A stretch of 64,000 bases of DNA, taken from NCBI GenBank assembly GCA_012728435.1, contig JAAYFC010000053.1, positions 1,662 to 65,661 on the forward strand. The letters are read 5' to 3'. Origin of the DNA: Clostridiales bacterium (GTDB lineage: Bacteria > Bacillota > Clostridia > Christensenellales > Aristaeellaceae). Below the pieces are notes generated by a model. The model saw nothing but the letters and a program-made list of their open reading frames with translations. It had not been told where the DNA came from and made no database searches. Positions 3 through 20,343 of this stretch are shown one piece after another. Every line of letters begins with the position of its first letter. Position 1 is the first letter of the stretch. A program made the position numbers and the translations under genes.

Positions 3-3000
3 GTCAGCGTGCCTGATGGCTATACCTCCAGCGGTGCCGGCAATGCCGCCAATGATTACACCATCACAAACACCTACTACCTGCTGCGCATCACCGGCAA
101 GAAATTGTGGGTGGATGTGCCAGAAGGAGCAACGAAGCCGACGGTCACTTTTAGGCTGTACAGACAAGGAACCATTAATGGCTCAGCCTACACTCAGCAA
201 GTCCCGGGTTCTGGAGATAAATATCCTACTAAGGATAACGATTGGACTGTAATCTGGGACGGCGTTGAACCCAAACAGCCGAATGGTCAACCGTTTTCTT
301 TCTTTGTACGGGAAGTGGAGTTTGCTGGAGGTTACGAAACCACAAACAATGATGCCGTTGTAAATGAAAGCAACGCCTATTCCGCAACCATTACAAACAA
401 GTATACTGGTGGTACTGCAAAAAGCGTTTATGCTACTAAGAGCTGGTTTGCCTCCGCTTCACCCAGCGGTGATTATCCGGAGGTTGAGTTCCGGCTGTAT
501 CGGCATGAGCAAGGCAGCACTGAGAAGGAGCAAGTTGGCGATCCGAAAGTAATCGATGCTCAGTCTGAGGGTCTGGGTATGCCCGGGGAAAACCAGACAG
601 TACAATGGGATGGATTAGAGACCTATTCTCCTGAGGCGAAGCTTTACATTTACTCCGTAGATGAAGTGGAAGTGCCATTTGGCTATAAGAAGAGCGATCC
701 TGTTGGATACGGGACAGAAAGCTCTCCCTTCGTCATCACCAATAAACTCCAGGACGCCCAGATTCAGCTGTTCAAGTTCTATTTAGACAGCAACAATAAT
801 GAAATGCCCGCCCGGGACTTCACTTTCAAACTGGAGGGCAAAGGCGCAAATGGCGTAGACGAGTTCTTGGTTGCCATTCCTGGGAAAGACAACATTGTGG
901 TGAAATCTGGAGAAACCTTCACCATGTCCAGCATTGGAGAAAGTGCAACCATCAGCGGCCTCATGGTTGGGCAGCCCTTTACTGTAACAGAGATGGACAG
1001 TGAAGCCTTCGATGTGCGTAACAGCACCGGGGCTCCCCCCTCAAATTGGGAGTTTGACAACTCAAGAACCATTACCCCAACGGATATCTATCCGATTTTC
1101 CCCTCCCTGACAACAGAGTTTATCAACAAGCTGGTGGGCCAGCTCAAGGTCACCAAGACGGTGACTGGCCTGACGGACGAAGAACTTGTAAGCGCCCCGG
1201 CCTTCAGCTTCAAAGTGACCGGGCCGGAAGGCTTTGACGAATCCTTCACCCTCAAACATGGCGAGAGCAAGGAATTTGACAGCCTGCTGCTGGGCGAATA
1301 CACCGTGACCGAAACCAAGGTGAATGGTTATACAACCACCATGAACCCGGCAGACGGCAAGGTTACCCTGAGTCTGGACAACCGCAGCCAGACGGTGGCT
1401 GTCACCAACAACTACACCGGCAGCCCAAGGGAGAAGGTGGTCACAAAGAAGTGGGTCACCACCGTGATGCCGGAAGGCGACTTCCCCACCCTGATGATCC
1501 AGGTTTACCGCCGGATTGGCAGCTCGGGTAACGGCACCCCGGTGGGTGACCCCAAAGAGCTCAGCACCGGCTCTGCCACAACTGACAGCATCACCTTCAC
1601 CGGGCTGCCCTTCTACGCCCCTTCCGGCGCACAGTACACCTACTACGTACGGGAAACCACGGTGCCCAACGGCTACACCGTCAAATACCCCGGTGCCGGC
1701 AACGCGGCGACGCCCGTTACCATCACCAATACCTATGACGGTAACACCAGCCATGAGCCAGGTGTGCCCTCTGGACCGGTGAGCATCAAGGCCACCAAGA
1801 AGTGGACCGGTCTGCCTCAGAACACCAATGGCGCTACGGTCGAACTGCAGCTGGTGCGCAGCGGTGCGGCCTTTGGCGACCTGGAGACTTTAACGGACAC
1901 AGGCAACCAGACCACACCCCACCAGAGCGTACACACCTGGGATAATCTGTACAAATTTGCGCCAGATGGCAAAATGTACGCCTACACAGTAGAGGAGCCC
2001 ACGGTGCCCAACGGCTACACGGCAGCAGTCACAGGTGACGCCACGGACGGCTTCACGGTGACCAATACCTACGATGGTGTGACGACAGACGACGACGACC
2101 CGACGAACGACACCAAGATTGAAGTCAAGGCGACGAAGGTGTTTAAGGACACACCAACAGGAGCAACGCTGCCTGAAGTGACCTTGAGCCTGACGGGCGC
2201 AGCACCGCAGACAGTCGAAGACAAGACGATTCCCAGCGGCACGGCTACCAGTGTTGAAGTGACTTGGACAGACCTGCTGCGCTTCAAGGCGGACAGCACA
2301 GCCTTTGAGTATGGCGTGGAAGAGTCAGAAGTACCCAACGGCTACACGGTAGCAGTCACAGGTGACGCCACGGACGGCTTCACGGTGACCAATACCTACG
2401 ATGGTCTTGGAGGTGAAGAACCAGTTGTATTCACCGCCAAGAAGATGTGGGAGAACATCCCGGACGGGACAGCGGCAGACAAAATGCCCAAGGCGACCAT
2501 CACCCTGTATCAGGATGGTGAGGAGCATGGGACAGCCAAGGAGCTGACCGCGACCGGCAACGGCACCCAGGAAGCCAAGTGGGAGAACCTGCTCAAGTAC
2601 GCGCCGGATGGATCGGAGTTCGTGTACACGGCGAAGGAAACAGCGGCCTCCAATGGTTACAAGCTGACCGTAAGCGATGACAAGCTGACCTTCACCAACA
2701 CCTACGACGGTACATCCACCAACAACCCGGATCCGGATGATCCTGAGGACACCACCAACCCAGAGAACCCGAAGACTGAGTACGCTGCCTTGACCGCCAA
2801 GAAGGTCTGGGCGAACATTCCTGAAGGAACCGAAAGCTTCCCGAAGGCGACCATCACCCTGTACCAGGATGGTGAGGAGCATGGGACAGCCAAGGAGCTG
2901 ACCGCGGACGGCAACGGTGAGCAGGAAGCCAAGTGGGAGAACCTGCTCAAGTACGCGCCGGATGGAACGGAGTTCGTGTACACAGCGAAGGAGACGGCTG

Positions 3001-3470
3001 CATCCAATGGTTACAAGCTGACCATCAGTGATGACAAGCTGACCTTCACCAACACCTACGACGGCACATCCACCAACAACCCGGATCCGGATGATCCTGA
3101 GGACACCACCAGCCCAGAGAACCCGAAGACCAAGCAGGTGGACATTACAGCCACCAAGGTTTGGAAGGGTGTTCCTGCAGGGGATAAAGTGCCGCAGATT
3201 AGCTTCCAGCTAACCCAGAACGGCAAGGCCTTTGAAGAGGCCATCACCCTGGAACCAGGGACCACCACAGCCACCTGGACAAAGCTAGCTGCTTATACGC
3301 CTGATGGACAGGATTTCCGTTATGACGTGACGGAGGAGAAGGTACCTGCTGGCTACAGCATGAGAAAGCAGGGCTTTGAAATCACCAATACCTTCGTGAC
3401 AGATAAGCCCACCATCACCGTGCTGCTGGGCACTGGCTTGAACAACAACCTGGGTGACTGTATCGACTGA
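3..3470 (+). CDS. Cna-B / SpaA-type repeat surface adhesin (5' end outside window)
   Basis: The frame is open from the window edge to the TGA at 3468-3470. There are about ten 90-120 aa modules, each opening with TKxW / KKxW and closing with VPxGY...TNTY(D)G, the pattern of Cna-B (prealbumin-fold) stalk domains. Linkers are D/P/T-rich. There is no LPXTG plus hydrophobic tail at the C-terminus. Confidence 0.85.
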   Translation, partial: VSVPDGYTSSGAGNAANDYTITNTYYLLRITGKKLWVDVPEGATKPTVTFRLYRQGTINGSAYTQQVPGSGDKYPTKDNDWTVIWDGVEPKQPNGQPFSFFVREVEFAGGYETTNNDAVVNESNAYSATITNKYTGGTAKSVYATKSWFASASPSGDYPEVEFRLYRHEQGSTEKEQVGDPKVIDAQSEGLGMPGENQTVQWDGLETYSPEAKLYIYSVDEVEVPFGYKKSDPVGYGTESSPFVITNKLQDAQIQLFKFYLDSNNNEMPARDFTFKLEGKGANGVDEFLVAIPGKDNIVVKSGETFTMSSIGESATISGLMVGQPFTVTEMDSEAFDVRNSTGAPPSNWEFDNSRTITPTDIYPIFPSLTTEFINKLVGQLKVTKTVTGLTDEELVSAPAFSFKVTGPEGFDESFTLKHGESKEFDSLLLGEYTVTETKVNGYTTTMNPADGKVTLSLDNRSQTVAVTNNYTGSPREKVVTKKWVTTVMPEGDFPTLMIQVYRRIGSSGNGTPVGDPKELSTGSATTDSITFTGLPFYAPSGAQYTYYVRETTVPNGYTVKYPGAGNAATPVTITNTYDGNTSHEPGVPSGPVSIKATKKWTGLPQNTNGATVELQLVRSGAAFGDLETLTDTGNQTTPHQSVHTWDNLYKFAPDGKMYAYTVEEPTVPNGYTAAVTGDATDGFTVTNTYDGVTTDDDDPTNDTKIEVKATKVFKDTPTGATLPEVTLSLTGAAPQTVEDKTIPSGTATSVEVTWTDLLRFKADSTAFEYGVEESEVPNGYTVAVTGDATDGFTVTNTYDGLGGEEPVVFTAKKMWENIPDGTAADKMPKATITLYQDGEEHGTAKELTATGNGTQEAKWENLLKYAPDGSEFVYTAKETAASNGYKLTVSDDKLTFTNTYDGTSTNNPDPDDPEDTTNPENPKTEYAALTAKKVWANIPEGTESFPKATITLYQDGEEHGTAKELTADGNGEQEAKWENLLKYAPDGTEFVYTAKETAASNGYKLTISDDKLTFTNTYDGTSTNNPDPDDPEDTTSPENPKTKQVDITATKVWKGVPAGDKVPQISFQLTQNGKAFEEAITLEPGTTTATWTKLAAYTPDGQDFRYDVTEEKVPAGYSMRKQGFEITNTFVTDKPTITVLLGTGLNNNLGDCID
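2430..3146. repeat. Tandem ~360-bp duplication (two near-identical Cna-B modules) inside the adhesin gene
   Basis: Units 2430-2789 and 2790-3146 align almost base for base. Both encode KATITLYQDGEEHGTAKELTA.GNG.QEAKWENLLKYAPDG.EFVYTAKETAASNGYKLT.SDDKLTFTNTYDGTSTNNPDPDDPEDTT.PENPKT. A further ~75-85 bp copy pair lies at 2003-2087 and 2331-2405. Confidence 0.9.
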
Positions 3471-3629: not shown

Positions 3630-4037
3630 ATGCAATTAAACCTATCTACCGACTACGCAATCAGGAGCATGGTCCACCTGGCTCAGATGCCGGGGGGCGA
3701 CAGTGCGTCCGGAATCTCCAAGATGATTGGCATCGAAAGGGTCCACACCCAGAAGATTCTGCGCAGTCTGCAGAAGGCTGATCTAGTCAAAAGCACGATG
3801 GGGAGCATGGGCGGCTTTTCTCTCACCCGTCCGCCGGACACCATCACCCTCCTGGACATCATCATCGCCATGGAAAAGACCATTCTGATCAACCGCTGCT
3901 TGGAGGAGGATCGCTTTTGCAGCCTCACCCGCACCCATGTGTGCCCGGTGCGCAGTGTGTATATCAACTTACAGACCCAGGTGGAGGATTATTTGCGCTC
4001 ATGGAGCTTGACCAAGCTGCTAGAAGAGGCCAAATGA
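3630..4037 (+). CDS. Rrf2 family transcriptional regulator (IscR/CymR-like)
   Basis: The N-terminus MQLNLSTDYAIRSMVHLAQ is the typical Rrf2 winged helix. The C-terminal half has a three-Cys cluster (CLEEDRFCSLTRTHVC), consistent with Fe-S ligation. The protein is 135 aa. Confidence 0.9.
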   Translation: MQLNLSTDYAIRSMVHLAQMPGGDSASGISKMIGIERVHTQKILRSLQKADLVKSTMGSMGGFSLTRPPDTITLLDIIIAMEKTILINRCLEEDRFCSLTRTHVCPVRSVYINLQTQVEDYLRSWSLTKLLEEAK

Positions 4038-4066
4038 TACCCGCCCGATAAGTCGCCGTTTTCTTT

Positions 4067-4091
4067 CTGCCACGCCAAGTGGCAGTTTTTT
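4067..4091 (+). terminator. Intrinsic terminator of the Rrf2 gene
   Basis: The stem CTGCCAC / GTGGCAG has a 5-nt loop and is followed by TTTTTT. Confidence 0.8.
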
Positions 4092-4272
4092 GCATAATAA
4101 ATTGAGGCCGCCTCGCTTAGAAATGGCCTCCTTCAATTGGAATCATCCAAGGCTAGGCTTGTACAGCTTAATAGCGATGGCGATAACACGAACTGAATGT
4201 AAATCACGGCAACGCAGTTGCAAAGACCCCGGCTGCTGAAAGTATCTTACAACAAAGCTCACAAAACCTCGC

Positions 4273-5406
4273 CTAGGTACTTTTTCCCTCCATCAACTCC
4301 ACAGGAATCTGGCGAATCTGCCGGCGCATATTTTTGTTGGCCAACATGCTTTCCAGGATATCCAGTGCGCTATGGGCGATGGCAGTTTCATCCTGTTTGA
4401 CATGGGTAAAAAAGTATTCACCCAAATAGCCGTATTTTTCATCAAAGCAGCAAATGGATAGGTCTTTTGGATCATCGCGGCCCAGCTGACGCGCGGCGGC
4501 GTGAACCAGGCGGGCGATGCCATATTCAGCGCACACAACAGCGCTTACCTCCTGGTGCGCGTTCAGCCAATTCATCAGGAACTCCTGGGTTGCAGGCTGG
4601 CCCCGGTCTTGCGGATGTGCAGGATAGGCAAACTGGGCAACCTGGGGGACGACCACCGGCAAGGCGGCGGTGAGCCCGGCCCCCTCCATCGCCTTTTTAT
4701 AGCCCTGGTAGCGGTCCTCCAGGGAGATGGCCTCGGACACTTCGGAGGTGAGGTACATAATGCGGCGATGCCCGCGGCTTTGCAAATGCTGTGTCAGCAT
4801 GCTTGCGCCTTCCTCATGACGGGAGCAGACGCAGGGGGCTGGGATGCCCAGCAGCGGCCTGTCCAGCAGCACCACGGGGAAATGATCCAGCACCAGGCGT
4901 AAAAGATCCGTGTCGTAGTAGGTGCCATGCGCGGGCATCACCAACAGGCCTTCCACGTCAAGGGCAAGCAGTTGGTGTAAAGATTTTCGTTCCACCGCTT
5001 GCTGTCCATAGGATACCCCAAGACAGATTTGGAAACCACGCTGGCTGGCCAGTTGATCCAGCGCGTAGAACAGGCTCATGGCGTAGGATTCGCCCAAGTC
5101 CTCCATAATCAGCCCAATACGCCTTTGACCATTTTTGCTGGCAGCCATTTTAAGGCGGGCACTGGCCATAAAACGCCCTGGTTGAAGCGATTGCGACACA
5201 AAGGTGCCCAGCCCCCGTTTGCGGACAACAAGCCCCTGATCAGCCAATAAATTCAGCGCACGCTTGCTGGTGATGCGGCTGACACCAAACTGATCGGCAA
5301 GCTGCATCTCGGTGGGCAATTGATCCCCCGGCTTCCAGTCGCCATTGGTGATTCCTTGCGCGATGTGGCGGTAGAGGATTTCGTATTGATAAGAGAGTTC
5401 ATCCAT
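4273..5406 (-). CDS. AraR-type chimeric regulator (GntR winged-HTH plus LacI/PBP1 sugar-binding core)
   Basis: The N-terminus has a GntR signature (LPTEMQLADQFGVSRITSKRALNLLADQGLVVRKRGLGTFV). About 270 aa of periplasmic-binding-protein-like fold follow. It is divergent from the ABC operon. The start is uncertain: ATG at 5406 versus GTG at 5418, which sits next to an AAGGGAG site. Confidence 0.85.
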   Translation of the reverse strand: MDELSYQYEILYRHIAQGITNGDWKPGDQLPTEMQLADQFGVSRITSKRALNLLADQGLVVRKRGLGTFVSQSLQPGRFMASARLKMAASKNGQRRIGLIMEDLGESYAMSLFYALDQLASQRGFQICLGVSYGQQAVERKSLHQLLALDVEGLLVMPAHGTYYDTDLLRLVLDHFPVVLLDRPLLGIPAPCVCSRHEEGASMLTQHLQSRGHRRIMYLTSEVSEAISLEDRYQGYKKAMEGAGLTAALPVVVPQVAQFAYPAHPQDRGQPATQEFLMNWLNAHQEVSAVVCAEYGIARLVHAAARQLGRDDPKDLSICCFDEKYGYLGEYFFTHVKQDETAIAHSALDILESMLANKNMRRQIRQIPVELMEGKST

Positions 5407-5418
5407 GTTGTGCAGCAC

Positions 5419-5720
5419 ACTCCCTTTGTCTGTATTTTATGCTTACAGCATATCAAATATATCATTTAAGCGCAAGCCTTTATCAATCATTCTGAGCGTA
5501 TAATCATCAGAAAATAAGAGAAAACATAATGCATACAAACGGAAAACGCGTGTATCTTCATAGCGGCATCCGGCTTGTCCAATGGTCACAAGGCACACAT
5601 GTAAAAAGAAAAATAGTTATAATGATATATAATGGAATAAAGTGGTATACTAATCATAACAGTATGTGTATGCCCAAAAACCACATGAGGGCTGCATGTC
5701 AACATGAATGGAGGTTAAAC
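5419..5720. promoter_or_regulatory. AT-rich divergent control region between the regulator and the ABC operon
   Basis: This ~300-bp region is clearly AT-richer than its flanks and has several TATAAT-like boxes (GTATAATCAT, GTTATAATGAT, TATATAAT, GGTATACT). An imperfect inverted repeat ATACAAACG-N5-CGCGTGTAT lies at 5533-5555. These are operator candidates only. Confidence 0.45.
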
Positions 5721-7094
5721 ATGAAAGGAAACACCATCAAAAAACTTCTGTCGATGGCTCTGGCGCTGTCCATGTTTCTGTCCTTAGGCTTCGTCTTAAG
5801 CGTTCAGGCGGAGGACATCGGCACCGTCAGAATCCTGACCAACGTAACCGGCGGCAAGGACGAGGCAGAGATGCTGCTGTTCGGTGAGGCTTTTGGCAAA
5901 GGCATCAACGGCACTGTCATCATGGAAAAGCCAACCGCCAACTACGGCGAATACGTGATGAACAAACTCAATGCAGGGGAGCAGTATGATTTGATCTATG
6001 TCGCCCTGCAGGATCTGTACGACATGCAAAAGGACGAAATCCTGACTGATTTGACCGATTGGGTCAAGGCGTCACCCATCCTGGGCGATCCAGACGTTGT
6101 GCCCGAGCAGGAATGGGAGCAGCTGACAATCAATGGCCGCATCTGGGGCGGTTTCAACAAGACTGAAGTGCACAAGCTTCCGGCCATCAACACGGTGATT
6201 GCCAACAAGGCCGGTGTGGATCTGGAAAAGGTAGAGCCCACGCTGGAAGGCTATCACGAATTGTTCAAGCAACTGCAGGCAGTTGGTGGGGAGGGCTTCT
6301 ACGCTTTCAACACCCACATCCCCGGGCTTCATGACCTGCAGCCCTGGTTTGCCGCAGTGGATCTGAAGATGGGCTTTGCCAAGAATGAGGATGGCTCCCT
6401 GTACATCCCCATCGCGACTGAGGCAGCCATCCCCGTATGGGAGTGGTTTGCTCAGCTGTACAAGGAAGGGCTGATGGATCCCGATGCCCTGATTAACACA
6501 ACGGGCGACATGCGCAACAAGATGATGGCTGGACAGACCGGCCTGGTTGTTGACTGGGCCGCCTGGGTAGGCCTTTACAATGTGCGCTCGGGCGAGAATT
6601 ATCCGGATGTGGTCAACGTGATGCCCTTGGGCGGCGTGAAGAATTCCAATGGCGACTTCATGTTCTCCCGCGGGGACCCATCCATCTGGGTTATCCCCAT
6701 CAACGCCAATAACCCCGAAGGGGGCTTCAAGGCACTTGAGTACATGGCAACCCAGGAAGGCGGCCAGCTGCTGTCCATTGGCATTGAAGGGCATGACTAC
6801 AACGTGGTGGACGGCAAGGTGGTCATGACCGAGATTGGCTTAAGCCACGGCAATGATCACGGCGCGCCGGTGCCCACCAGCCGCAAGTATGTAAGCCCTG
6901 TTCCGCTTAACCCCGGTTTTGCGGAGGCGATGGCCTTCCTGCCGTACGCATCTTTGGACATGAGCACTGACATGAACAACACCTACAAGGAAATCGTGGC
7001 CAAGTACGCCACCGAGATCATTATTGGCACCAAGACCGGCGCTGAAGGTGTGGAAGCCATGCAAAAGGAGCTCAAGGAGCGCGGCGTAATCTAA
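5721..7094 (+). CDS. ABC transporter extracellular solute-binding protein (family 1, oligosaccharide type)
   Basis: The ATG at 5721 is preceded by GGAGG. The signal peptide is MKGNTIKKLLSMALALSMFLSLGFVLSVQA. The ~457-aa size and composition are typical of a CUT1 binding protein. The in-frame upstream extension from 5529 has no ribosome-binding site. Confidence 0.85.
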   Translation: MKGNTIKKLLSMALALSMFLSLGFVLSVQAEDIGTVRILTNVTGGKDEAEMLLFGEAFGKGINGTVIMEKPTANYGEYVMNKLNAGEQYDLIYVALQDLYDMQKDEILTDLTDWVKASPILGDPDVVPEQEWEQLTINGRIWGGFNKTEVHKLPAINTVIANKAGVDLEKVEPTLEGYHELFKQLQAVGGEGFYAFNTHIPGLHDLQPWFAAVDLKMGFAKNEDGSLYIPIATEAAIPVWEWFAQLYKEGLMDPDALINTTGDMRNKMMAGQTGLVVDWAAWVGLYNVRSGENYPDVVNVMPLGGVKNSNGDFMFSRGDPSIWVIPINANNPEGGFKALEYMATQEGGQLLSIGIEGHDYNVVDGKVVMTEIGLSHGNDHGAPVPTSRKYVSPVPLNPGFAEAMAFLPYASLDMSTDMNNTYKEIVAKYATEIIIGTKTGAEGVEAMQKELKERGVI

Positions 7095-7126
7095 TCCAAG
7101 CTTCTGACCAAAAGACCGATGATTTC

Positions 7127-7156
7127 GCTGGTCCGCTGAGCCATCAGCGGGCCAGC
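7127..7156 (+). other. Intercistronic stem-loop between the binding-protein and permease genes
   Basis: A 13-bp stem, GCTGGTCCGCTGA / TCAGCGGGCCAGC (one G-U pair), has a 4-nt loop and no T-run. Confidence 0.5.
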
Positions 7157-7251
7157 ATTACAATAATCAGCCTGCTACCTGACTCAAACTGCAGCTTTCG
7201 TCCAGTATATATCGTCTCGTAGAACATCAATTTTAATAGGCCCAGGAGGTC

Positions 7252-8193
7252 GTGATGAGCACCATTCAAGCGCAGCCCCCCCTCACCAGACGGCAGCAAC
7301 ACCGTGCGTGGCGCAGGCGCAAAATGTGGCAGTACAAAAGCATCTATCTGATGATTGTGCCTGTGTTTTTGTATTTTGCCATTTTCACTTTTTACCCGCT
7401 AGGCCTTGGCTTGGTGCAGAGTTTTCAGCGCGTTCCCTTGATTGGCAAGGCCACCTACATCGGCGTGACCAACTACCAGCAGGTGCTCAAGGACCCCATC
7501 TTCATCAAATCCATGACCAACTCCATGCTGGTGGGGACCACTTCGCTGCTCATCAACCTGGCAGTTGCCCTTGTGTTGGCCATCTCTGTCAACGAGGTTC
7601 GAAACCGCTTTAGCAAATCCCTCATTCAAACCGCCACCTTCCTTCCGTATCTATTTTCTTGGACGGTAGTTGGCGGGATGTGGCTGCAGATTTTAGCTCA
7701 CAACGGCATGATGAACAACTTCTTAGCTTTGGTGGGGCTGGACCGCTTGCCATTTTTCACCTCCCCTGTATGGGGGCGTCCGGTCATCCTGTTCACCAAT
7801 GCCTGGAAGCAGGCGGGTTATTTTGTGGTACTCATGTTGGCCAGTGTGGTCAGCATCGATCCAACCATCTATGAAGCGGCCCGCATCGACGGTGCTTCCC
7901 GGATCAAACAAATCAGCTACATCATCATCCCTCAGGTCTGGCCCACCATCAAGACACTTCTTGTTTTAGGGGCAACCGGTGTGCTTCGCAATTTTGACCA
8001 GGTATTGATTATGAACCGCCCGGCGACCAAGGACAGCATCCGGACTTTGCTTTTGTATATCTACGAAGAGGGCATCACAAAACGGCGCATCGGCACCGCC
8101 ACAGCGGCTGCCAGCGTGGTGATGGTGATAACCTTGGTGATTACCGTGGTTGTCAGGCGCATGGCGCGCTACGACCAGGATGCCAGCTATTAA
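7252..8193 (+). CDS. Sugar ABC transporter permease (LplB/MalF-like)
   Basis: AGGAGG lies upstream. The protein has six predicted hydrophobic spans and the ABC TMD loop EAARIDGASRIKQISYIIIP (EAA motif). Confidence 0.9.
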   Translation: MMSTIQAQPPLTRRQQHRAWRRRKMWQYKSIYLMIVPVFLYFAIFTFYPLGLGLVQSFQRVPLIGKATYIGVTNYQQVLKDPIFIKSMTNSMLVGTTSLLINLAVALVLAISVNEVRNRFSKSLIQTATFLPYLFSWTVVGGMWLQILAHNGMMNNFLALVGLDRLPFFTSPVWGRPVILFTNAWKQAGYFVVLMLASVVSIDPTIYEAARIDGASRIKQISYIIIPQVWPTIKTLLVLGATGVLRNFDQVLIMNRPATKDSIRTLLLYIYEEGITKRRIGTATAAASVVMVITLVITVVVRRMARYDQDASY

Positions 8194-8202
8194 GGAGGGG
8201 AC

Positions 8203-9099
8203 ATGAGCACAAAATTGTCTGACAGGCCAGAGAAACTGCCCAAGGCCAACCGGAATGAGCTGCCCCCTTTGGGCCGCGTCATCAACGCGGTATTCCTGGT
8301 CCTGATTTTCTTAATTATGCTTTTGCCCATGGTGAATGTGCTGGCCATTTCGCTGTCCAGCAACGCGGCGTCCCAGGTCTCGGATGTGACCTTATGGCCG
8401 AAGAATTTTTCGACCGAGGGCTATACCTTCATCTGGAACGCCCAGAACCTGGGCAGGGCTTTTGGCAACAGCTCCTTTGTATCAGTGGTGGGCACCCTGT
8501 TCACGGTGTTTATTTCATCCATGGCAGGCTACGCGCTGATTCAGCGCGAACTCCCCTTCCGCAAGGCAATTGCCACAGGCATCTTAATCACCATGATGAT
8601 CCCCGGGGACTTGACCTTGGTGTCCATCTTCTCCCTAAACAAGGCACTGGGGCTCATCGACTCCTACCGGGGGCTGATTCTAAACGGCTTGGTGTCCGCT
8701 TTTTCCATCATGCTGATGCGCAACTATTTCCTCTCAGTGCCCGAATCCCTGGCGGAATCCGGACGGATTGACAACGCCTCGGAGCTGCGCATCTTTTTGT
8801 CCATCTACCTGCCCTTGTCTTTGCCTGGCCTTGCGGCCATCACCTTCCTGGAGTTTATCGGCAAATGGAACTCCTTCATGGTGCCCCTGATTATCACCAC
8901 CAAGCCGCAGCTGTTTACCCTGCCAATTATCCTCCGGCAGCTAACCCAGCCTACAGACTCCACCTCCGGCGTGGTGCAGATTTATGAGAACGCACGCATG
9001 GCGGCCATTGTCATCACCGTCATCCCCTTGCTTGTGCTGTACAGCTTTGCCCAGCGGTTTTTAATTGGCGGCTTGACCTTGGGCGCATCCAAAGGCTAA
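8203..9099 (+). CDS. Sugar ABC transporter permease (LplC/MalG-like)
   Basis: It starts 9 nt after the previous stop. It is a multi-span membrane protein with the EAA-like loop ESGRIDNASELRIFLSIYLP. Confidence 0.9.
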   Translation: MSTKLSDRPEKLPKANRNELPPLGRVINAVFLVLIFLIMLLPMVNVLAISLSSNAASQVSDVTLWPKNFSTEGYTFIWNAQNLGRAFGNSSFVSVVGTLFTVFISSMAGYALIQRELPFRKAIATGILITMMIPGDLTLVSIFSLNKALGLIDSYRGLILNGLVSAFSIMLMRNYFLSVPESLAESGRIDNASELRIFLSIYLPLSLPGLAAITFLEFIGKWNSFMVPLIITTKPQLFTLPIILRQLTQPTDSTSGVVQIYENARMAAIVITVIPLLVLYSFAQRFLIGGLTLGASKG

Positions 9100-9109
9100 G
9101 GGAGGGAAT

Positions 9110-10420
9110 ATGCAACCAACGATTAACGATTTCACCCGGCGCATTGACCGAAGGGAGATGGGTCAATACCTGCGCGTGCCCTTTATCATGCCGCCGGATG
9201 CTGACACCCTGCGCGTGACCTATTCCTATGAGCGCCATCGCCTTCATGATGAGGGGGATGGCCGTGTAACACGGGACGAGATCAACATCGTGGATCTGGC
9301 TTTGGAAAAGCCCGGCTATGAACTGGTGGGCGCTTCTGGCTCAAACCGCCAGGAGATTACCCTGCATGAAAACTACGCAACGCCGGGCTATCATCCCCAC
9401 AGGCTGACACCCGGCACCTGGCATATCATCCTGGGCGCATACCAGATTGAGGAGGCGGGCTGCCCGGTTAAAATACGGGTAGAGATTATGCTCAAGCAAG
9501 GCTTGCTTGTAAAGGGAGACACTCATACCCACACAGTCCACTCCGACGGCTGGTATACGGTGGAGGAAGCCATTGAAAGAGCCCGGGGGGACAGGATGGA
9601 TTTTCTCTTCCTCACCGACCACAACAGCATGGCCTCCAATCCCCTTGTGCGCTCCTATCCGGATTTAACGGTCATCCCCGGGGTGGAGATAACCTACTAT
9701 GGCGGGCATTACAACCTCTTTGGGGTGCAGCGTCCGGTGAAGACCTATGTGGCCAACACCCGGGATGAGGTGTTAACAATTATGGCAGAGGGGCGATATA
9801 ACAAGGCCTTGTGTTCCGTCAACCATCCCACGGATGCCAATTGCCCCTGGACCTTTGGTTTAGGCGAGGATGTGCCGGTGGACATGGTGGAAATCTGGAA
9901 TGGTCCTTACACACCCTGGAACCAAAAGGCCATCGACCTGTGGCAGGAGCATCTGTGCGCTGGGCGGATCTGGCCTGCAATCGGCGGCAGCGATGTCCAC
10001 CACAGCGAGCTGTTCCGCACCTATGGAACCCCGACGACCTTTTTGTACACCAGGTCCCGGGGCGCGTCAGATATTTTGGATGCGATGCGAAAGGGACACG
10101 CCTTTGTGGGCATGCATCCCGAAGCGCCTCATATCCACCTTGGCATCAAAGACGCGCGAATGGGCGATGTGTACCACGGGGAGCCGTCGCCCTTGCGCCT
10201 GCAGGTGGGCCCGCTATCCGCGACGGACGAAGTCCTGGTCATCAACCAGACGGGGGTTCTTTGGCGGCAAACTCCCGGAAAATGCCACCTGTTTGAGGCG
10301 GAAGTATCCGCACATGGCAGCCGTTTTCTGCGGGTGGAGGTTCGCCGCGAATTGCCCAACGGCCTCCCCACCCTGGCAAGCATCAGCAACCCCATCTACA
10401 TCAATCCGGTAGGGGGCTAG
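9110..10420 (+). CDS. PHP-domain metallohydrolase (CehA/McbA-like)
   Basis: A ~135-aa N-terminal beta-rich domain is followed by PHP motifs GDTHTHTVHSDG, FLFLTDHNS and GGSDVHH. The gene is tightly coupled within the operon, with a 10-nt gap upstream. Confidence 0.8.
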   Translation: MQPTINDFTRRIDRREMGQYLRVPFIMPPDADTLRVTYSYERHRLHDEGDGRVTRDEINIVDLALEKPGYELVGASGSNRQEITLHENYATPGYHPHRLTPGTWHIILGAYQIEEAGCPVKIRVEIMLKQGLLVKGDTHTHTVHSDGWYTVEEAIERARGDRMDFLFLTDHNSMASNPLVRSYPDLTVIPGVEITYYGGHYNLFGVQRPVKTYVANTRDEVLTIMAEGRYNKALCSVNHPTDANCPWTFGLGEDVPVDMVEIWNGPYTPWNQKAIDLWQEHLCAGRIWPAIGGSDVHHSELFRTYGTPTTFLYTRSRGASDILDAMRKGHAFVGMHPEAPHIHLGIKDARMGDVYHGEPSPLRLQVGPLSATDEVLVINQTGVLWRQTPGKCHLFEAEVSAHGSRFLRVEVRRELPNGLPTLASISNPIYINPVGG

Positions 10421-10426
10421 GTAAGA

Positions 10427-12496
10427 ATGGACATCCGCAAGGTTCATGTGATTTTTAAGACCCATTTGGACATCGGGTTTACCGACCTGGCCAGCTCAGT
10501 CACGCAGAACTATCTGGAGCACTTCATCCCAGCCGCGCTTGCCACTGCGCGGCTGCATAATATGAAGGGTCAGCCCAAACGCTTTGTGTGGACGGTGGGC
10601 GCGTACCTGATTGACCTGGCGCTGCGCACAGGAAGCACCGCTTTGATTCGGGATCTTGAGGCCGCCATCCATGCGGGGGACATCACCTACCACGCCTTGC
10701 CCTACACCCTCCACTCGGAATTGTGCAGCCCCGCGCTGCTAAAGGCGGGGCTGGGCATCGCGGCGCGGCTGGATGCCCGTTTCGGCCGGCGCACCATCGC
10801 CGCCAAGATGACCGATGTACCCGGCCATACCCGAAGCATCATCAAGCCTTTAACAGAGCAGGGGATCCAGTACCTGCACATCGGCATCAATGATGTAGCC
10901 TGCATGCCGCAGGTTCCTCCCCTGTTTCTCTGGGAGAACGTGGAAGGGCATCAGCTGCTGGTGCACTATGAGCGAGGCTATGGCGGGATCACCGTAGTAC
11001 CCGGCCACCCGGAGGCACTGTGCTTCCTGCACAGTGTGGATAACGCAGGCCCCCCGGATTCCAGGGGGCTAACCCAGTCGTTTGAGCACCTGCAATCCCA
11101 GTTCCCAGGCGCTGTGATTGAGGCATCCACCTTGGACGCCTTTGCCCGCAGCCTCAAAAACAGCCGGGTGAAACTGCCCATATTAAGGCAGGAAATCGGG
11201 GATACATGGATTCATGGCATCGGCACTGATCCCTATAAAACGTCGACGCTGCGCAAACTGGACATGCTCAATACACAATGGGATATTTCAGGACGCTGGG
11301 CAGGTTTTGAAGACCCTTTGCCGGATGGACGCCTGCCGCGACAGGCCTGGCTAGAGCAGCTGTTGCTTACGTGCGAGCACACATGGGGGATGGATTGTAA
11401 GAAGTTTTTAACCGACTACCGCAACTGGACCCGGGATGATTTTGATGCTGCGCGCAAGCGGGACAGGCTGTTGGATGAGGATGCTCATCTCACCGATTAT
11501 TTAGAGTATTTCCATTTTGCAAAGCAAGAATTTGACGCGCTTTCGCCCCGCGGTATCGCCTGGGATCATCGCAGCTACGCGCTGTTTGAGCGCTCCCATC
11601 AGGAGCAACGGGATTATTTGCGAACCGCTGTTGCTTTGCTGCCGCCCTCATTACAGGGGGAAGCTGCGCCTTTGCTTGAGCCGCCCGCCATTTTGGCTGT
11701 GCCACAGGGCGGGGAGCTGCCCCCTCATCAGCAGGTAAACCTGGCAGGCTGGCAGGCTGTATCTGGCGCTGAAGGGTTGATGCTCCGCTCTCCCGATGGG
11801 CAGGAGCTTACAATCGGCTTCCCGATCTACCAGGAAGTGGGCCTGAAGGCCTATGAAAAGCTGACCGGGCATTACCTTAAGCATGTGGAGCACTTCCGCC
11901 TCTGGGCTCTTCCTGACAATACCAAGCTTGGCGTGGAACACAGCGACGCGCCCCTTTTTGACCGTCTGCATCTTCCAAGGGAAGTTCAGGTTCGTTTCCA
12001 TGACGGGTGCTTGTTCGTAAGTGGAAGCTATGGGGAATTAGCCCATCGACTTGCCGGATGCCCAGGGCGCTTTGCCCTGCGTTGCATGCCCGAAAACGGG
12101 CGTCTCCACATCACCTTGCAGCTGCTGGACAAACCAGCAAACCGAAAGCCAGAGACCTTGTTTTTACCGTTTTTCTATTCAGGAAAAGGGGCATTGGCTG
12201 CGCGTAAAATCGGCCAATGGCAAAACCCACAGGACACCGTTTCAGGCGGCAATCAGCGTACGCACGGGATGGACGCCTTTCGTTGGCATCACCCAGAGGG
12301 CCAGGGGCTTGTCGTCCACAGCCCGCATGCCGTCTTGGCATCCATCAGCAAGCCCGCCCTGCTGGACTTTGATGGGGACAGCGCACAGAACCGGGTGTAT
12401 GTTAACCTGTACAACAACCTGTGGGGTACCAACTTTAAAATGTGGTATGACGAGCCCATCAGCTGTGACTTCCAGATAGAGCAAATCTACAAATAA
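10427..12496 (+). CDS. GH38-like / DUF5054-like putative glycoside hydrolase
   Basis: The N-terminus VHVIFKTHLDIGFTD resembles the first metal-binding strand of GH38 alpha-mannosidases. The protein is 689 aa and starts 6 nt after the PHP gene. The family assignment is from memory only. Confidence 0.6.
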   Translation: MDIRKVHVIFKTHLDIGFTDLASSVTQNYLEHFIPAALATARLHNMKGQPKRFVWTVGAYLIDLALRTGSTALIRDLEAAIHAGDITYHALPYTLHSELCSPALLKAGLGIAARLDARFGRRTIAAKMTDVPGHTRSIIKPLTEQGIQYLHIGINDVACMPQVPPLFLWENVEGHQLLVHYERGYGGITVVPGHPEALCFLHSVDNAGPPDSRGLTQSFEHLQSQFPGAVIEASTLDAFARSLKNSRVKLPILRQEIGDTWIHGIGTDPYKTSTLRKLDMLNTQWDISGRWAGFEDPLPDGRLPRQAWLEQLLLTCEHTWGMDCKKFLTDYRNWTRDDFDAARKRDRLLDEDAHLTDYLEYFHFAKQEFDALSPRGIAWDHRSYALFERSHQEQRDYLRTAVALLPPSLQGEAAPLLEPPAILAVPQGGELPPHQQVNLAGWQAVSGAEGLMLRSPDGQELTIGFPIYQEVGLKAYEKLTGHYLKHVEHFRLWALPDNTKLGVEHSDAPLFDRLHLPREVQVRFHDGCLFVSGSYGELAHRLAGCPGRFALRCMPENGRLHITLQLLDKPANRKPETLFLPFFYSGKGALAARKIGQWQNPQDTVSGGNQRTHGMDAFRWHHPEGQGLVVHSPHAVLASISKPALLDFDGDSAQNRVYVNLYNNLWGTNFKMWYDEPISCDFQIEQIYK

Positions 12497-12692: not shown

Positions 12693-13709
12693 TTGTCGAA
12701 GAAACAGAAGTTGCCCAAACACATCTACGAACAAGAGCTGGAAAGGCTCCAGCTTGAGTTGGTCTATGTCCAGCGCTGGGCCAATAAAACCAAAGCCAGG
12801 ATTGTGATTATCTTCGAGGGACGGGACGCTGCCGGCAAGGGCGGCGTCATCAAAAGCATTACCGAACGGCTCAACCCCAGAACCTGCCGCACCGTTGCCC
12901 TGCCCGTGCCTACAGAAAAAGAGAAGACCCAATGGTACTTCCAACGCTATGTTGCGCACCTGCCCTCTGCCGGTGAAATTGTCATCTTTGACCGCAGTTG
13001 GTACAACCGCGCCGGGGTAGAGCGCGTGATGGGCTTTTGTACGGAGAAGGAACACGAGGACTTTATGCGCGATTGCCCGGATTTTGAGGCCATGCTGATC
13101 AGGTCCGGCATCATCCTGATCAAGTATTGGTTTTCTGTCAGCGCGCAGGAGCAGAAGCGCCGTTTCCAATCGCGGATTTCGGATCCAAGCAAAAACTGGA
13201 AGATCAGCCCCATGGACATGCAAGCCCGCCAGCACTGGGTGGATTATTCACGGGCCAAGGATACCATGCTGCGCTACACGGATACCAAGCTGTCCCCGTG
13301 GTACATCGTGGATTCGGATGATAAAGCGAAATCAAGAATCAATTGCATCAGCCACCTGCTAACCCTGATTCCCTACGAAATCATCCCCTATGAAAAGATG
13401 GCGCTAAAGCCGCTGCAGCGGGATGATTCCTACATCCGCAAACCCATGTCCGAGCAAACCTGGATACCCGATGTCACCTCTGCGCTGATGCAGGCAGAAG
13501 ATCCTCTAACAGAGCGCAAAAAAGCCAAGAAAAAGCCCAATAAGAAGAAAAAAGCGAAGAAGAAAAGCCAGGAGCAGAGCAAACTGGAAGCACCCAAAGC
13601 TGAAGACCAAGCGGAAGAGCTGGATGGGCAGGCAATCGCAAAAGAGGGGGAAAGCCCCATCCCCTCCATTGAAGAAAACGAAGAGGCGCCTGTTCAAACC
13701 CAGGAGTAA
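12693..13709 (+). CDS. ppk2: Polyphosphate kinase 2 (PPK2) with a charged C-terminal extension
   Basis: The Walker A motif is FEGRDAAGKGG. PPK2 core motifs are present (QWYFQRYVAHLP, IFDRSWYNRAGVERVMGF). The likely start is the TTG at 12693, 4 nt after GGGGGGAG. The ORF track start at 12660 lacks a ribosome-binding site. Confidence 0.9.
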   Translation: MSKKQKLPKHIYEQELERLQLELVYVQRWANKTKARIVIIFEGRDAAGKGGVIKSITERLNPRTCRTVALPVPTEKEKTQWYFQRYVAHLPSAGEIVIFDRSWYNRAGVERVMGFCTEKEHEDFMRDCPDFEAMLIRSGIILIKYWFSVSAQEQKRRFQSRISDPSKNWKISPMDMQARQHWVDYSRAKDTMLRYTDTKLSPWYIVDSDDKAKSRINCISHLLTLIPYEIIPYEKMALKPLQRDDSYIRKPMSEQTWIPDVTSALMQAEDPLTERKKAKKKPNKKKKAKKKSQEQSKLEAPKAEDQAEELDGQAIAKEGESPIPSIEENEEAPVQTQE

Positions 13710-15005: not shown

Positions 15006-15076
15006 AAGGATACATCAGGCAGGCGGAGCCAAAGCTGGTTCGACCTTTGCGCAAGGTAGAACAAGAGGATGGCACC

Positions 15077-18000: not shown

Positions 18001-18205
18001 GCCTGTATATGGCCTGCATGCAGCCCAGCTTGATTTGGGGGCAGCGGCGGTTATCACTACTGATGCCGCAAACATGGGCGCACGAAGCGGTCTGCTGGCA
18101 GCCCGTATCCTATCAGGCGAGAACGCAGCAAACATCCCCTATGAAACACCGCGCAGGTATCAAATTCTGTTAAACTTCGATATCATACAGGAGCTTGGGC
18201 TCTAA
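15077..18205 (+). CDS. Large surface protein: TSP3-like Ca-binding motifs, about four He_PIG-like Ig repeats, a Pro/Glu-rich linker, and a C-terminal ABC_sub_bind-type solute-binding domain
   Basis: There is no signal peptide at its own N-terminus. DxDxDGxPD motifs are present (DANRNGIPD, DDDADGMPD). The repeated pattern is IPxI...LP.GL.F....G.I.G.......W......Y.(V/I)T(V/I). The C-terminal ~280 aa match the PF04392 pattern (DYALVIAIGEPMAQTAQQA...NPLVFVDVADPVAAGL...AARILSGENAANIPYET...ILLNFDIIQELGL). Confidence 0.7.
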   Translation: MIDVPGTRVLSNWMPGEMERVYSFYINATGKHPDGEKSITIMVNMRYLRDANRNGIPDMYEEFAQNPFILSDIPDISILSSEKLQSMHYYAMKNLELEGDDVKWPVRYGLGMHPPGVRLHANAQGNEKGEQAKIDGKINLEWAEHEMSRKVRVFYTGEDSDGKTAQNAMDIKVLRDDDADGMPDGLLSIAAIPPRMIVEGESIKPIPITVRSSLPDPVELGVFAGVFYIKDDLPHIVFLGPADYNLELVKLSEGPSFAQEKDVKLHHYEIRGKFRFPSDLGDYGWGKNQSIRRLYLQASAWSGEYSSEPMDLSIMVLRSGDKEDPRVKYQFVPIPDITVYQTQEIPTVKLQMKQGNEDIRFLTSELPSGLSFNKENNTITGSIAVGEWQDWEADRRYSVTAYAVYKPEWNKTYEFDDPKVIAIEQFYITVLPEVIDMGKGVAPIADQTVLNHTVIKPIMVRGEHDTQLAGIRLEGMPAGIRGGPGGFIEGAVNIYDWEEGESIRGFNVTVEASFKTVPKAHRDGVPTIQIADTATTSFTMHVLRDEPSGWTEGDELVPLAILNIPQQDMQNGEAIAPIIIQVQDISNSGVEIHALGLPPGLVHEPEGEIHGTPAVEDWGENEFTRIYHITIKVMNGLGQETSSIFKAAISREGVTDENPPIPDPDEAPPSEYGDMPPSESGDMPPSEWGDMPPAEEPPAEAPPAEEPPAEAPPAEEPPAEVPPAEEPPAEVPPAEEPIEMPDDIPEDIPEDPADNPLEALLPPPVVIAAKEGLTIAIAQGEQSQHQEKILHGIFAGLNQAGYRPGDNITVEYYLADEENQTVGRIAEQLRQKDYALVIAIGEPMAQTAQQALEGRNPLVFVDVADPVAAGLTGSVTGIIASLAPHQLLNAIGTIQPNAMSIAYLYAQAADYAANYIKEAEGDGMLALAAAVTDPAALVQEGMTLLETAELLIVNQEFEDEESLKQLIEAAKANGKPVYGLHAAQLDLGAAAVITTDAANMGARSGLLAARILSGENAANIPYETPRRYQILLNFDIIQELGL
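17078..17284. repeat. In-frame tandem repeats: 3 x 24 bp (PPSE.GDM), then 9 x 15 bp (PPAEE/PPAEA/PPAEV)
   Basis: Three 24-mers lie at 17078-17101, 17102-17125 and 17126-17149. Nine consecutive 15-mers cover 17150-17284. Confidence 0.9.
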
Positions 18206-19647: not shown

Positions 19648-20343
19648 ATGAATCATCAGGAAATCAGAGCGCAGATGTGCGATGTATGCCACAGGATGTG
19701 GCAGCAGGGCTGGGTCGCAGCCAATGACGGCAATCTCAGCGTCAAGCTGGCGGACGGCACCTATTTGTGCACGCCCACCGGTATGTCAAAAAGTTTCATC
19801 ACAAAGGAGTCCCTCCTTCACGTGGACGCAGGGCTCAACATCCTAAAAGGCATGCCCGGCCTCAAACCTTCCAGCGAAATGAAAATGCACATGCGCTGCT
19901 ATACGGAGCGCCCGGATGTGGGCGCGGTGCTGCACGCGCACCCGCCGACAGCCACGGGTTATGCGGTCGCGGGCAAGAGTTTGGACGATTACTCGATGAT
20001 CGAAACGGTGGTCACCATGGGCTCCATCCCGCTGACGCCCTATGGCACGCCCTCCACCTATGAGGTGCCTGAGGCGATTGCGCCTTACTTGCAGGAACAC
20101 GATGTGGTGCTGCTGCAAAACCACGGCGCGCTGGCGGTTGGCGTGGATTTGCTGACGGCATACTACCGCATGGAAACCCTGGAGCTGTTTGCCAAGATCA
20201 GCCTGGTCGCCCACCAACTGGGCGGCGCAAAGGAAATACCAAAAGAGCAGATTAACAAGCTGTTGGAACTGCGCAAGAACTACTACCAGGTGTCCGGGCG
20301 GCATCCCGGCTATAAAAAATACCCCACTCGCAAGGAGGACTGA
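19648..20343 (+). CDS. fucA: Class II aldolase/adducin family protein, probable L-fuculose-1-phosphate aldolase
   Basis: Motifs are ANDGNLSVKL, TPTGM, KPSSEMKMH, HAHPP and LLQNHGALAVG. It sits immediately upstream of fucI. Confidence 0.75.
   Translation: MNHQEIRAQMCDVCHRMWQQGWVAANDGNLSVKLADGTYLCTPTGMSKSFITKESLLHVDAGLNILKGMPGLKPSSEMKMHMRCYTERPDVGAVLHAHPPTATGYAVAGKSLDDYSMIETVVTMGSIPLTPYGTPSTYEVPEAIAPYLQEHDVVLLQNHGALAVGVDLLTAYYRMETLELFAKISLVAHQLGGAKEIPKEQINKLLELRKNYYQVSGRHPGYKKYPTRKED

Follow-up and report, generated by a model that had tools for sequence, protein, structure and literature searches.

A sugar-uptake operon that pairs a PHP-family hydrolase with a GH38-like DUF5054 protein and may act on α-mannoside conjugates

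Organization of the operon

The 64-kb stretch of DNA studied here, from contig JAAYFC010000053.1 of a Clostridiales bacterium (hereafter the window), carries at positions 4273-12496 a set of six genes, in which one divergent regulator gene is followed by five co-directional genes for a solute-binding protein (SBP), two permeases of an ATP-binding cassette (ABC) importer, a PHP-family enzyme and a DUF5054 protein (Table 1). This locus is a genuine sugar-uptake operon, and it shares the working logic of the classical sugar operons that combine an importer with cytoplasmic hydrolases. Its novelty lies in the two enzymes, of which one is a PHP-family hydrolase without a known role in carbohydrate metabolism and the other comes from a family that has no characterized member.

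The coordinates of the open reading frames (ORFs) are identical to those in a first-pass annotation of the locus, which had described five co-directional genes with gaps of 6-157 nt; in gene order the gaps measure 157, 9, 10 and 6 nt. All peptides quoted there were located, GDTHTHTVHSDG, FLTDHNS and GGSDVHH in the PHP enzyme and VHVIFKTHLDIGFTD at the start of the DUF5054 protein. The annotation had also called a regulator with AraR architecture, a binding protein with two CUT1-type permeases, and an operon with no ATPase gene, and each of these calls is borne out by the matches given below.

Table 1 Positions of the operon genes, control elements and flanking genes in the window
Feature	Position	Strand	Description
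Regulator	4273-5418	-	381 aa
Regulator/transporter intergenic control region	5419-5720		promoter scan and alignment of four loci
Promoter-like site	5622-5651	+	ATGATA-18-TATACT with TG (promoter scan)
Solute-binding protein	5529-7094 (mechanical ORF); probable start 5721	+	521 aa (mechanical ORF); 457 aa from probable start
GC-rich hairpin	7127-7156	+	perfect 13-bp stem GCUGGUCCGCUGA, loop GCCA, UCAGCGGGCCAGC; 33 nt after binding-protein stop; no T-run
Permease 1	7252-8193	+	313 aa
Permease 2	8203-9099	+	298 aa
PHP enzyme	9110-10420	+	436 aa
DUF5054 protein	10427-12496	+	689 aa
PPK2 protein	12693-13709 (mechanical ORF from 12660)	+	PPK2 3.6e-102; TIGR03707 369 bits
Surface-type protein 1	9-3470	+	1153 aa
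Surface-type protein 2	15047-18205	+	1052 aa
L-fucose isomerase	20189-22111	+	
CUT2-type ABC system	27152-30733	+	two-domain ATPase and BPD_transp_2 permeases

The regulator consists of a GntR winged helix-turn-helix (residues 12-74; Pfam GntR 5e-19) and a LacI/periplasmic-binding-protein (PBP) type-I sugar-binding core (approximately residues 100-381; Peripla_BP_3 1.3e-20, Peripla_BP_1 1e-13). Its PDB matches include, among LacI/PurR/CcpA cores, the C-domain (3tb6, 6.7e-9) and the N-domain (4egy, 2.1e-7) of AraR. It shares with AraR of Bacillus subtilis the two-domain architecture, detectable similarity to both domains and the divergent placement beside the regulated sugar operon, whereas its best NCBIfam matches are the generic HutC, FruR and GalR models, far under their cutoffs. 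No AraR-specific model was matched, and we do not regard the regulator as an AraR ortholog.

A regulator of the same type occupies the same position in three of the loci retrieved in the surveys described below, which bear L numbers (L086, L084 and L002). Alignment of the corresponding intergenic regions (L086:3056-3374, L084:4375-4694 and L002:5155-5330) with the control region of the window reveals two conserved blocks, GCATATCAAAyATAyCAT near the regulator start and TATAtTGA...TGgTATAmT at the transporter promoter. The repeated ATATCA(A/T)/TGATAT elements in this region could be operator half-sites.

With a GGAGG located 7 nt upstream and a 457-residue product that begins with a signal peptide, the binding-protein gene almost certainly starts at ATG 5721 and not at 5529. 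The signal peptide lacks a lipobox Cys. The match to SBP_bac_1 is weak (8.9e-4, 19.8 bits, under the cutoff of 26), and the nearest solved relatives, the 5gub/5gx8/5xs8 group ("extracellular solute-binding protein family 1") and AlgQ1/AlgQ2, are matched with E of about 5e-9 across only about 150 residues. Orthologs of this protein occupy the same position in L001-L003, L007, L043, L082, L086 and L088. A uronate or glycosaminoglycan substrate, as the likeness to AlgQ1/AlgQ2 and the 5gub group might suggest, was considered and set aside, since the match extends over about 150 residues with 38 bits and the operon is not accompanied by uronate-pathway genes.

The hairpin that follows the binding-protein gene is the sole strong one within the operon, and for the surrounding segment as a whole (7090-7255) the predicted folding energy is -45.1 kcal/mol (z = -1.98). 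The hairpin probably serves as an mRNA stabilizer within the operon or as a partial terminator or attenuator, which would raise the ratio of binding protein to permease. Both permeases are of the CUT1 type. Permease 1 (UgpA/MalF-like; BPD_transp_1 6.7e-13, UgpA 2.8e-24, GlcT 1.1e-21) has a GTG start behind GGAGG, and permease 2 is UgpE/MalG-like (BPD_transp_1 7.5e-14, GlcU 1.9e-34, UgpE 9.5e-32, MalG 4.5e-25). The operon contains no ATPase gene, and no partner ATPase was detected in the 64 kb with phmmer and one MsmK-type query, taken from a Clostridium sp. DJ247 locus; the only match to this query is a two-domain ATPase (27152-28711) that adjoins a BPD_transp_2 permease. Orthologous clusters in L082, L007 and Rhizobiaceae contain a MalK/MsmK-type ATPase.

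The PHP enzyme has a complete set of trinuclear-site ligands

The PHP enzyme matches the NCBIfam model NF038032 (CehA_McbA_metalo) with 186.7 bits (cutoff 80; 6.9e-55), its residues 135-432 covering positions 4-315 of the 315 in the profile, and reaches 25.2 bits with Pfam PF02811, marginally under the cutoff of 26.4. In the AlphaFold2 (AF2) model (pLDDT 94.8), an N-terminal β-sandwich (residues 1-130) is followed by the PHP barrel (approximately residues 135-335) and a C-terminal β-sandwich. The nine ligands of the trinuclear site (H139, H141, D146, H171, E193, H200, H239, D295 and H297) are all present, and none of them varies among 34 close relatives or in a larger set of 95 that includes distant ones. 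Since the motifs of the N-terminal sandwich are also kept (GxSG 74-77, ATPGY 90-94 and W104), this domain is integral to the family. The profile match, the nine ligands and the AF2 model all agree with the initial reading of a CehA/McbA-like protein with PHP motifs behind a β-rich N-domain. The enzyme has no signal peptide and is predicted to be cytoplasmic.

The Foldseek neighbors of the model are 3e38 (BVU_3505; 5.7e-13), TM0559 (2anu), RNase AM (7ug9 and 9etk), BAD_1165 and Cv1693 (2yb1). Structural-genomics proteins and RNase AM are the nearest, no characterized carbohydrate enzyme is found among the closest structures, and the neighbors with a named activity are all phosphoesterases (RNase AM and the AMP/phosphate complex of Cv1693). 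In sequence searches of the PDB, RNase AM and TrpH-type proteins score best, by virtue of the N-terminal HxH...DH motifs. The PHP barrel and the complete nine-residue site are shared with the PHP phosphoesterases (RNase AM/TrpH, the pAp phosphatase Cv1693 and histidinol-phosphate phosphatase) and with CehA and McbA, but the window enzyme adds the conserved N-terminal β-sandwich and the C-terminal β-sandwich, and RNase AM lacks both of these family-specific domains. CehA and McbA are described in reviews as carbaryl hydrolases. The genomic setting of the present subfamily is sugar catabolism and not aromatic degradation, its genes lying with sugar transporters and mannan-related glycosidases, away from genes of nucleotide, histidine or pesticide metabolism. 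When 1.84 billion representatives were searched with the profile, the subfamily came to 956 clusters at 50% identity (E <= 1e-30). Among its long matches, P0361, P0282, P0373 and P0380 have no informative extra domain that would mark a PHP-glycosidase fusion.

The DUF5054 protein is a distant sister of GH38 α-mannosidases

The DUF5054 protein and all of its 34 aligned relatives match PF16477 (147.3 bits for the window protein against a cutoff of 37.6; 1.2e-42, residues 265-522). Its AF2 model (pLDDT 89.8) consists of an N-terminal (β/α) barrel, a helical linker and a C-terminal β-sandwich. Nearly all of the top 40 Foldseek matches of the model are α-mannosidases of glycoside hydrolase family 38 (GH38), aligned over the full length with E 7.8e-19 to 1e-10 and TMq 0.49-0.62; among them are 2wyi, 7ufu, 5kbp, dGMII, Ams1 and jack bean mannosidase. 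The GH57 matches are weaker (E 8e-12 to 1e-5, TM-scores 0.28-0.33), and the C-terminal sandwich is matched by aldose-epimerase-like folds. In sequence, the protein is only about 10% identical to GH38. PDB sequence and profile searches gave no true match, only chance coiled coils, and 14 of the 34 relatives match PF01074 (Glyco_hydro_38N) and no other GH38 domain (best 2.5e-8). In profile alignments with hhalign, the family aligns with 12 canonical GH38 sequences (Prob 95.2%, E 2.5e-8) and with Escherichia coli MngB (E 8.6e-5).

H13 and D15 align with the invariant His and Asp of GH38, and K11 with the first His of the H-x-H-x-D motif. D130 (TDVPGH) aligns with the invariant Asp of the PDxFG motif of GH38, the nucleophile Asp in D-x-x-G, and D205, which aligns with GHD of MngB, is a candidate acid/base Asp. 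H318 (EHTWG, compared with the HD motif of GH38) may be the fourth metal ligand, to judge by motif position only. These six residues are invariant in the 34 DUF5054 sequences. In GH38, zinc is bound by the second His and by the Asp of HxHxD, together with the nucleophile Asp and another His farther on. Since the first His of the motif is not a ligand, K11 is no evidence of a lost metal site. The aligned catalytic residues of the DUF5054 protein appear to be intact. The likeness of the protein's start to the first metal-binding strand of GH38, with Lys where the first His normally sits, had been pointed out before; hhalign, Foldseek and the H13/D15 pair confirm the likeness, and the Lys proves to be invariant in the family.

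Compared with GH38 enzymes such as E. coli MngB, Streptococcus pyogenes SpGH38, Bifidobacterium Bl_Man38A and Drosophila Golgi mannosidase II, the DUF5054 protein has the same three-part architecture and fold, the HxD motif, the nucleophile Asp and the candidate acid/base Asp. Unlike them, it has 689 residues instead of about 880-1100, an invariant Lys where HxHxD has its first His, and no Alpha-mann_mid or GH38C Pfam domain. The family is a distant sister of GH38 and not a GH38 member by sequence criteria. Like the product of the E. coli mngR-mngA-mngB system, it is a predicted cytoplasmic enzyme partnered with a sugar importer under a GntR-type regulator. DUF5054 and a canonical GH38 occur together in L007, L014, L016, L062 and L175, so the two are not redundant, which implies different specificities.

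The PHP and DUF5054 genes are linked across bacterial phyla

The neighborhood of DUF5054 was surveyed in one genome per species, with the best 80 of at least 599 matches, and the ORFs in the fetched loci are mechanical stop-to-stop frames labeled by HMM or phmmer matches. Of the 80 species-level loci, 19, from at least 4 phyla, have a PHP homolog no more than 10 kb from DUF5054, a count that overstates the number of independent events because many loci are phylogenetically related. The 19 loci belong to Clostridia and other Bacillota (L001-L003 and L007), Bacilli (L009, L053 and L059), Anaerolineae and other Chloroflexota (L013, L019, L024, L029, L045, L055, L064 and L074), Sphaerochaeta (L043), Lentisphaerota (L079) and others (L062, and L070 with a weak 56-bit match). 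Among 25 plasmid or chromid records that carry DUF5054, at least 21 have the PHP gene at a distance of 6-7 kb. Conservation of this adjacency was one of the checks put forward with the first-pass annotation, and the pairing does recur; PHP and DUF5054 are linked across at least 5 bacterial phyla.

The exact order SBP-permease-permease-PHP-DUF5054 is found in L001, L002, L003, Clostridium lamae (L007), Sphaerochaeta (L043) and two metagenome contigs (L088 and L124). Clostridium sp. DJ247 has it as well, preceded by genes for a LacI regulator and a MalK-type ATPase, and so does a human-gut metagenome-assembled genome with the same GntR/PBP regulator. In Rhizobiaceae and Martelella, DUF5054 and a LacI gene are divergent from SBP-permease-permease-ATPase-PHP. 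In the Chloroflexota-type variant, an MFS_2 (GPH family) symporter and a PF00756 "putative esterase" lie directly upstream of PHP, with or without DUF5054 (L013, L019, L024, L029, L045, L055, L074 and many of L090-L122); about half of the well-flanked cases have DUF5054 alongside, divergent or convergent. This variant keeps the enzymes and exchanges the class of transporter.

A second survey was anchored on the close PHP subfamily in metagenomes. Among the 18 loci with at least 3 kb of flank on each side, a transporter is present in 16, DUF5054 in 7 and a canonical GH38 in the DUF5054 slot in one (L110). In each of the genome loci listed with this PHP survey, PHP is directly 3' of a sugar transporter, across phyla and with two unrelated transporter types. 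The invariant core is thus the transporter and PHP, and DUF5054 is a frequent, dispensable partner. DUF5054 also occurs without PHP in Rhizobium leguminosarum. All-against-all clustering of the ORFs around PHP revealed nothing recurrent beyond the transporter, the esterase, DUF5054/GH38 and a pair of aldo-keto reductase (AKR) and AP_endonuc_2 genes; the rest is lineage-specific synteny.

Gene neighbors tie both families to α-mannoside catabolism

In L110, the operon reads SBP-permease-permease-PHP-GH38, with a canonical GH38 replacing DUF5054 in an otherwise identical arrangement. In a survey of 38 loci of the more distant PHP subfamily, canonical GH38 is the commonest neighbor, lying immediately 3' of PHP in L129, L131, L135, L137, L138 and L143 and nearby in L147, L151, L163 and L167. 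Martelella has PHP-GH38 plus DUF5054, and L062 has PHP-DUF5054-GH38. On Haladaptatus plasmids (L171:9037-18610 and L173:7887-17293), PHP is convergent with a gene of GH76, the α-1,6-mannanase family, and beside the pair lie genes for a Gfo/Idh/MocA oxidoreductase, a regulator of the TrmB type and a CUT1 ABC importer equipped with a UgpC-type ATPase. Both the PHP family and its association with mannan therefore reach the Archaea. Around DUF5054 without PHP, we found GH2 β-mannosidase-like genes (7 loci), GH35 (6 loci), ROK kinases (5 loci), Opp-type ABC systems and MR_MLE enzymes; GH35 and GH42 β-galactosidases are also among the neighbors of DUF5054.

These neighbors tie both families to α-mannoside catabolism. 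The mannan part of the first-pass guess at a substrate, phosphomannan or mannose 6-phosphate (Man-6-P) glycans, gains support from the GH38, GH76 and GH2 β-mannosidase-like genes, and its phosphate part is plausible but unproven.

A metal-dependent phosphatase does work alongside α-mannosidases in the yeast-mannan polysaccharide utilization loci (PULs) of Bacteroides thetaiotaomicron, where phosphorylated high-mannose glycans are attacked by the phosphatase BT3783 together with enzymes of GH92 and GH38 (PMC4978465). BT3783 was overlaid on tyrosyl-DNA phosphodiesterase (PMC4978465) and is therefore not a PHP protein, and those loci are Sus-type PULs, in contrast to the ABC importer and two cytoplasmic enzymes of the window operon.

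Proposed function and alternatives

We propose, with a probability of roughly 0.5, that the operon catabolizes a small imported α-mannoside conjugate that bears an ester, most probably a phosphate mono- or diester. The repressor would control the divergent promoter and be released by the substrate or product, and the secreted binding protein and the two permeases would import the compound with energy from an ATPase encoded elsewhere. In the cytoplasm, the three-metal center of the PHP enzyme would hydrolyze the ester, most likely a phosphate, and the DUF5054 protein would then hydrolyze a manno-configured α-glycosidic bond. The first-pass annotation had likewise suggested that the pair acts in sequence, with ester or phosphate removal before glycosidic cleavage. 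The suggestion is supported and was refuted by none of the checks that were run; no HMM, PDB-sequence or fold search assigned either enzyme to a characterized family of unrelated function. We infer the identity of the substrate, the order of the enzymes, the preference for phosphoester over carboxyl-ester chemistry and the behavior of the repressor, and the functional statements made here rest on homology and gene neighborhood.

Phosphate is favored because the trinuclear site is intact, because all characterized structural neighbors are phosphoesterases, because the PHP gene of Hymenobacter, described in the next section, lies among genes for phosphodiesterase-type enzymes, and because the B. 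thetaiotaomicron phosphatase with GH38 and GH92 provides a functional precedent (PMC4978465). An alternative is that the PHP enzyme is a carboxyl- or carbamate-esterase, which de-acylates an acylated (for example, acetylated or carbamoylated) α-mannoside before cleavage by the DUF5054 protein. Its best family match is the CehA/McbA model of the reported carbaryl hydrolases, and the PF00756 esterase sits directly between the GPH transporter and PHP in Chloroflexota-type loci, which indicates that acyl esters are part of the substrate there and leaves phosphate unproven. However, a second carboxyl-esterase is less needed if the PF00756 protein already takes the acyl groups, the three-metal site, in the complete form usual for PHP phosphoesterases, is invariant, the close structures with known activity all belong to phosphoesterases, and the neighbors of PHP in Hymenobacter include a phosphatidylinositol (PI)-specific phospholipase C and an NPP-type phosphodiesterase. 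We consider esterase chemistry of this kind unlikely.

Quite unlikely, in our view, is another activity of the DUF5054 protein on the same fold, for instance that of a GH57-like transglycosylase, of a glycosidase for α-glucosaminides, α-galactosides or α-glucuronides, or of a metal-dependent deacetylase of the barrel clan. The identity of about 10% to GH38, the subthreshold PF01074 score of the window protein, the GH57 fold matches, the five loci that also encode a canonical GH38 and the GH35 and GH42 β-galactosidase neighbors would all fit such an activity. On the other hand, GH38 dominates the top 40 fold matches over the full length, with GH57 TM-scores of at most 0.33, the GH38-type HxD and the nucleophile Asp in D-x-x-G are invariant, and the protein occupies the same slot as the canonical GH38 of L110. 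That the PHP enzyme is a passenger, a housekeeping nucleotidase or RNase like TrpH or RNase AM with no substrate in common with the DUF5054 protein, as its best PDB sequence matches through the N-terminal HxH...DH motifs could suggest, is very improbable in view of its position directly 3' of a sugar transporter in 16 of the 18 well-flanked metagenome loci and in genome loci across phyla with two unrelated transporter types, its recurrent adjacency to DUF5054, GH38 or GH76, and its β domains, which RNase AM lacks.

Several observations weigh against sequential action of the pair on a phosphorylated α-mannoside conjugate. CehA and McbA hydrolyze a carbamate ester and not a phosphate. A cytoplasmic phosphomonoesterase for Man-6-P would waste a useful phosphate, which would point to a diester or an aglycone-linked phosphate (for example, inositol phosphate) rather than Man-6-P. 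The window DUF5054 protein has no match above threshold to PF01074, Alpha-mann_mid or Glyco_hydro_38C in Pfam, and the hhalign alignment does not cover H318. The two genes are also found apart: only 7 of the 18 well-flanked close PHP loci have DUF5054, a PHP-only operon exists in Christensenellales, and L004 has a close DUF5054 homolog with no PHP within 10 kb. The relatedness of many loci, noted above, bears on the strength of the linkage as well. Our literature search found no biochemical work on either family in this role.

A possible link to inositol-linked mannosides

Complete iolG/D/E/B/C/A operons adjoin DUF5054 in six Bacillales loci (L009, L028, L039, L044, L057 and L059), in at least three arrangements, with or without PHP. 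In Metabacillus idriensis (L009), a single co-directional array reads permease-permease-PHP-AKR-AP_endonuc_2-DUF5054-IolG-D-E-B-C-A-ROK, and an unlabeled 447-aa ORF (3754-5094) just 5' of the permeases is presumably the binding protein. In Cohnella sp. OV330, about 50 nt separate the stop-to-stop ORF of DUF5054 from that of IolD, and L151 and L147 each combine PHP with iol genes and GH38. The nearest published parallel, one that resembles the six Bacillales loci, is a cluster of Geobacillus sp. 1MC16, where a GntR-family regulator, a three-component ABC system and an intracellular α-mannosidase are described in silico beside iolG/D/E/B/C/A (PMC4428132). It differs in that the enzyme is named an intracellular α-mannosidase and no PHP gene is reported, and the description is annotation only.

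A plasmid of Hymenobacter volaticus (NZ_CP095068.1, L174:382-9278) encodes in a row an NPP-type phosphodiesterase, SusC, SusD, a PI-specific phospholipase C (PI-PLC-C1) and PHP. The phospholipase is a Ca-dependent enzyme (PF16670, 1e-127), and this Sus-type PUL looks like a locus for harvesting inositol phospholipids or inositol phosphoglycans. Inositol phosphate glycans are freed from glycosylinositol phosphorylceramide (GIPC) by a fungal phospholipase C (PMC11496612). Judged by the gene contexts, inositol-linked mannosides are no less fitting a substrate than phosphomannan or Man-6-P glycans.

A tentative, possible extension is that the cassette belongs to a widespread unrecognized pathway that scavenges mannosylated inositol-phosphate head groups, as inositol phosphate glycans set free from actinobacterial phosphatidylinositol mannosides (PIM) and lipomannan, from fungal mannosylinositol phosphorylceramide and GIPC, from plant GIPC or from glycosylphosphatidylinositol (GPI) anchors. 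In such a pathway, the PHP enzyme would be a phosphoesterase for (glycosyl)inositol phosphates or cyclic phosphates, and the DUF5054 protein would represent a new glycoside hydrolase family that cuts the innermost sugar-inositol bond. Myo-inositol would enter the Iol pathway and mannose would go to the ROK kinase, while canonical GH38 and GH76, where present, would trim the outer α-mannan. Against this extension, the iol linkage is limited to Bacillales and two or three metagenome contigs, and a search of the 64-kb window revealed no iol genes. No homologs of the PI-specific phospholipase C, GH76 or NPP were found in 160 genome and metagenome loci, and the phospholipase and GH76 links rest on single lineages.

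The AKR and AP_endonuc_2 (xylose-isomerase-like TIM barrel) pair mentioned above stands beside PHP and DUF5054 in C. lamae (L007:12544-14362) and in two Bacillaceae (L009:8226-9984 and L059:8209-9967, the latter corresponding to L081:8245-9976). These are the families of IolS and of IolE/IolH/IolI in B. subtilis.

Distribution and significance

DUF5054 is a large family, with more than 4,800 homologs scored in one search and at least 599 species-level genome matches. Should its members prove to be GH38-like glycosidases with a specificity of their own, the family would constitute a new one in CAZy. To our knowledge, no characterized PHP enzyme, including those matched here, has a role in glycan catabolism, and the role proposed above would bring the PHP superfamily into this field. 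Our literature search found no mention of DUF5054 or PF16477, no description of the PHP/DUF5054 module and no pathway for recycling PIM, GIPC or GPI head groups; if the substrate is an inositol phosphate glycan, the operon would reveal bacterial recycling of head groups from PIM, GIPC or GPI anchors. The module is found in human-gut Christensenellales, other Clostridia, Chloroflexota-type contigs (among them some from activated-sludge and fermentation metagenomes), soil Bacillales, plant-associated Rhizobiaceae and haloarchaea, and because of this wide distribution the substrate is probably common and ecologically relevant. With several cultivable carriers and two soluble enzymes predicted to be cytoplasmic, the hypothesis is directly testable.

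Genes flanking the operon

About 200 nt 3' of the DUF5054 stop lies a PPK2 gene with its own GGGGGAG ribosome-binding site and a TTG start; no clear terminator separates it from the DUF5054 gene. It is a phosphate-metabolism gene adjoining a putative phosphoesterase operon, and in L053 a Na/Pi cotransporter-PhoU gene similarly follows DUF5054. PPK2 was considered as a member of the system and rejected, since it is missing from every orthologous locus examined, and it is probably unrelated to the operon.

Farther downstream, at a distance of 8-18 kb, are a gene for L-fucose isomerase and a separate ABC system of the CUT2 type. The remainder of the window is housekeeping (PPDK, SNF2 helicase, GroEL and GlnRS), so the operon is not part of a larger glycan-utilization island. 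Two genes for surface-type proteins flank the operon. Surface-type protein 1 has eight Cna_B repeats and SpaA/DUF5979 domains, and surface-type protein 2 is an unusual fusion of a He_PIG Ig-like domain, an extensin-like low-complexity stretch and a C-terminal ABC_sub_bind domain (3.8e-27).

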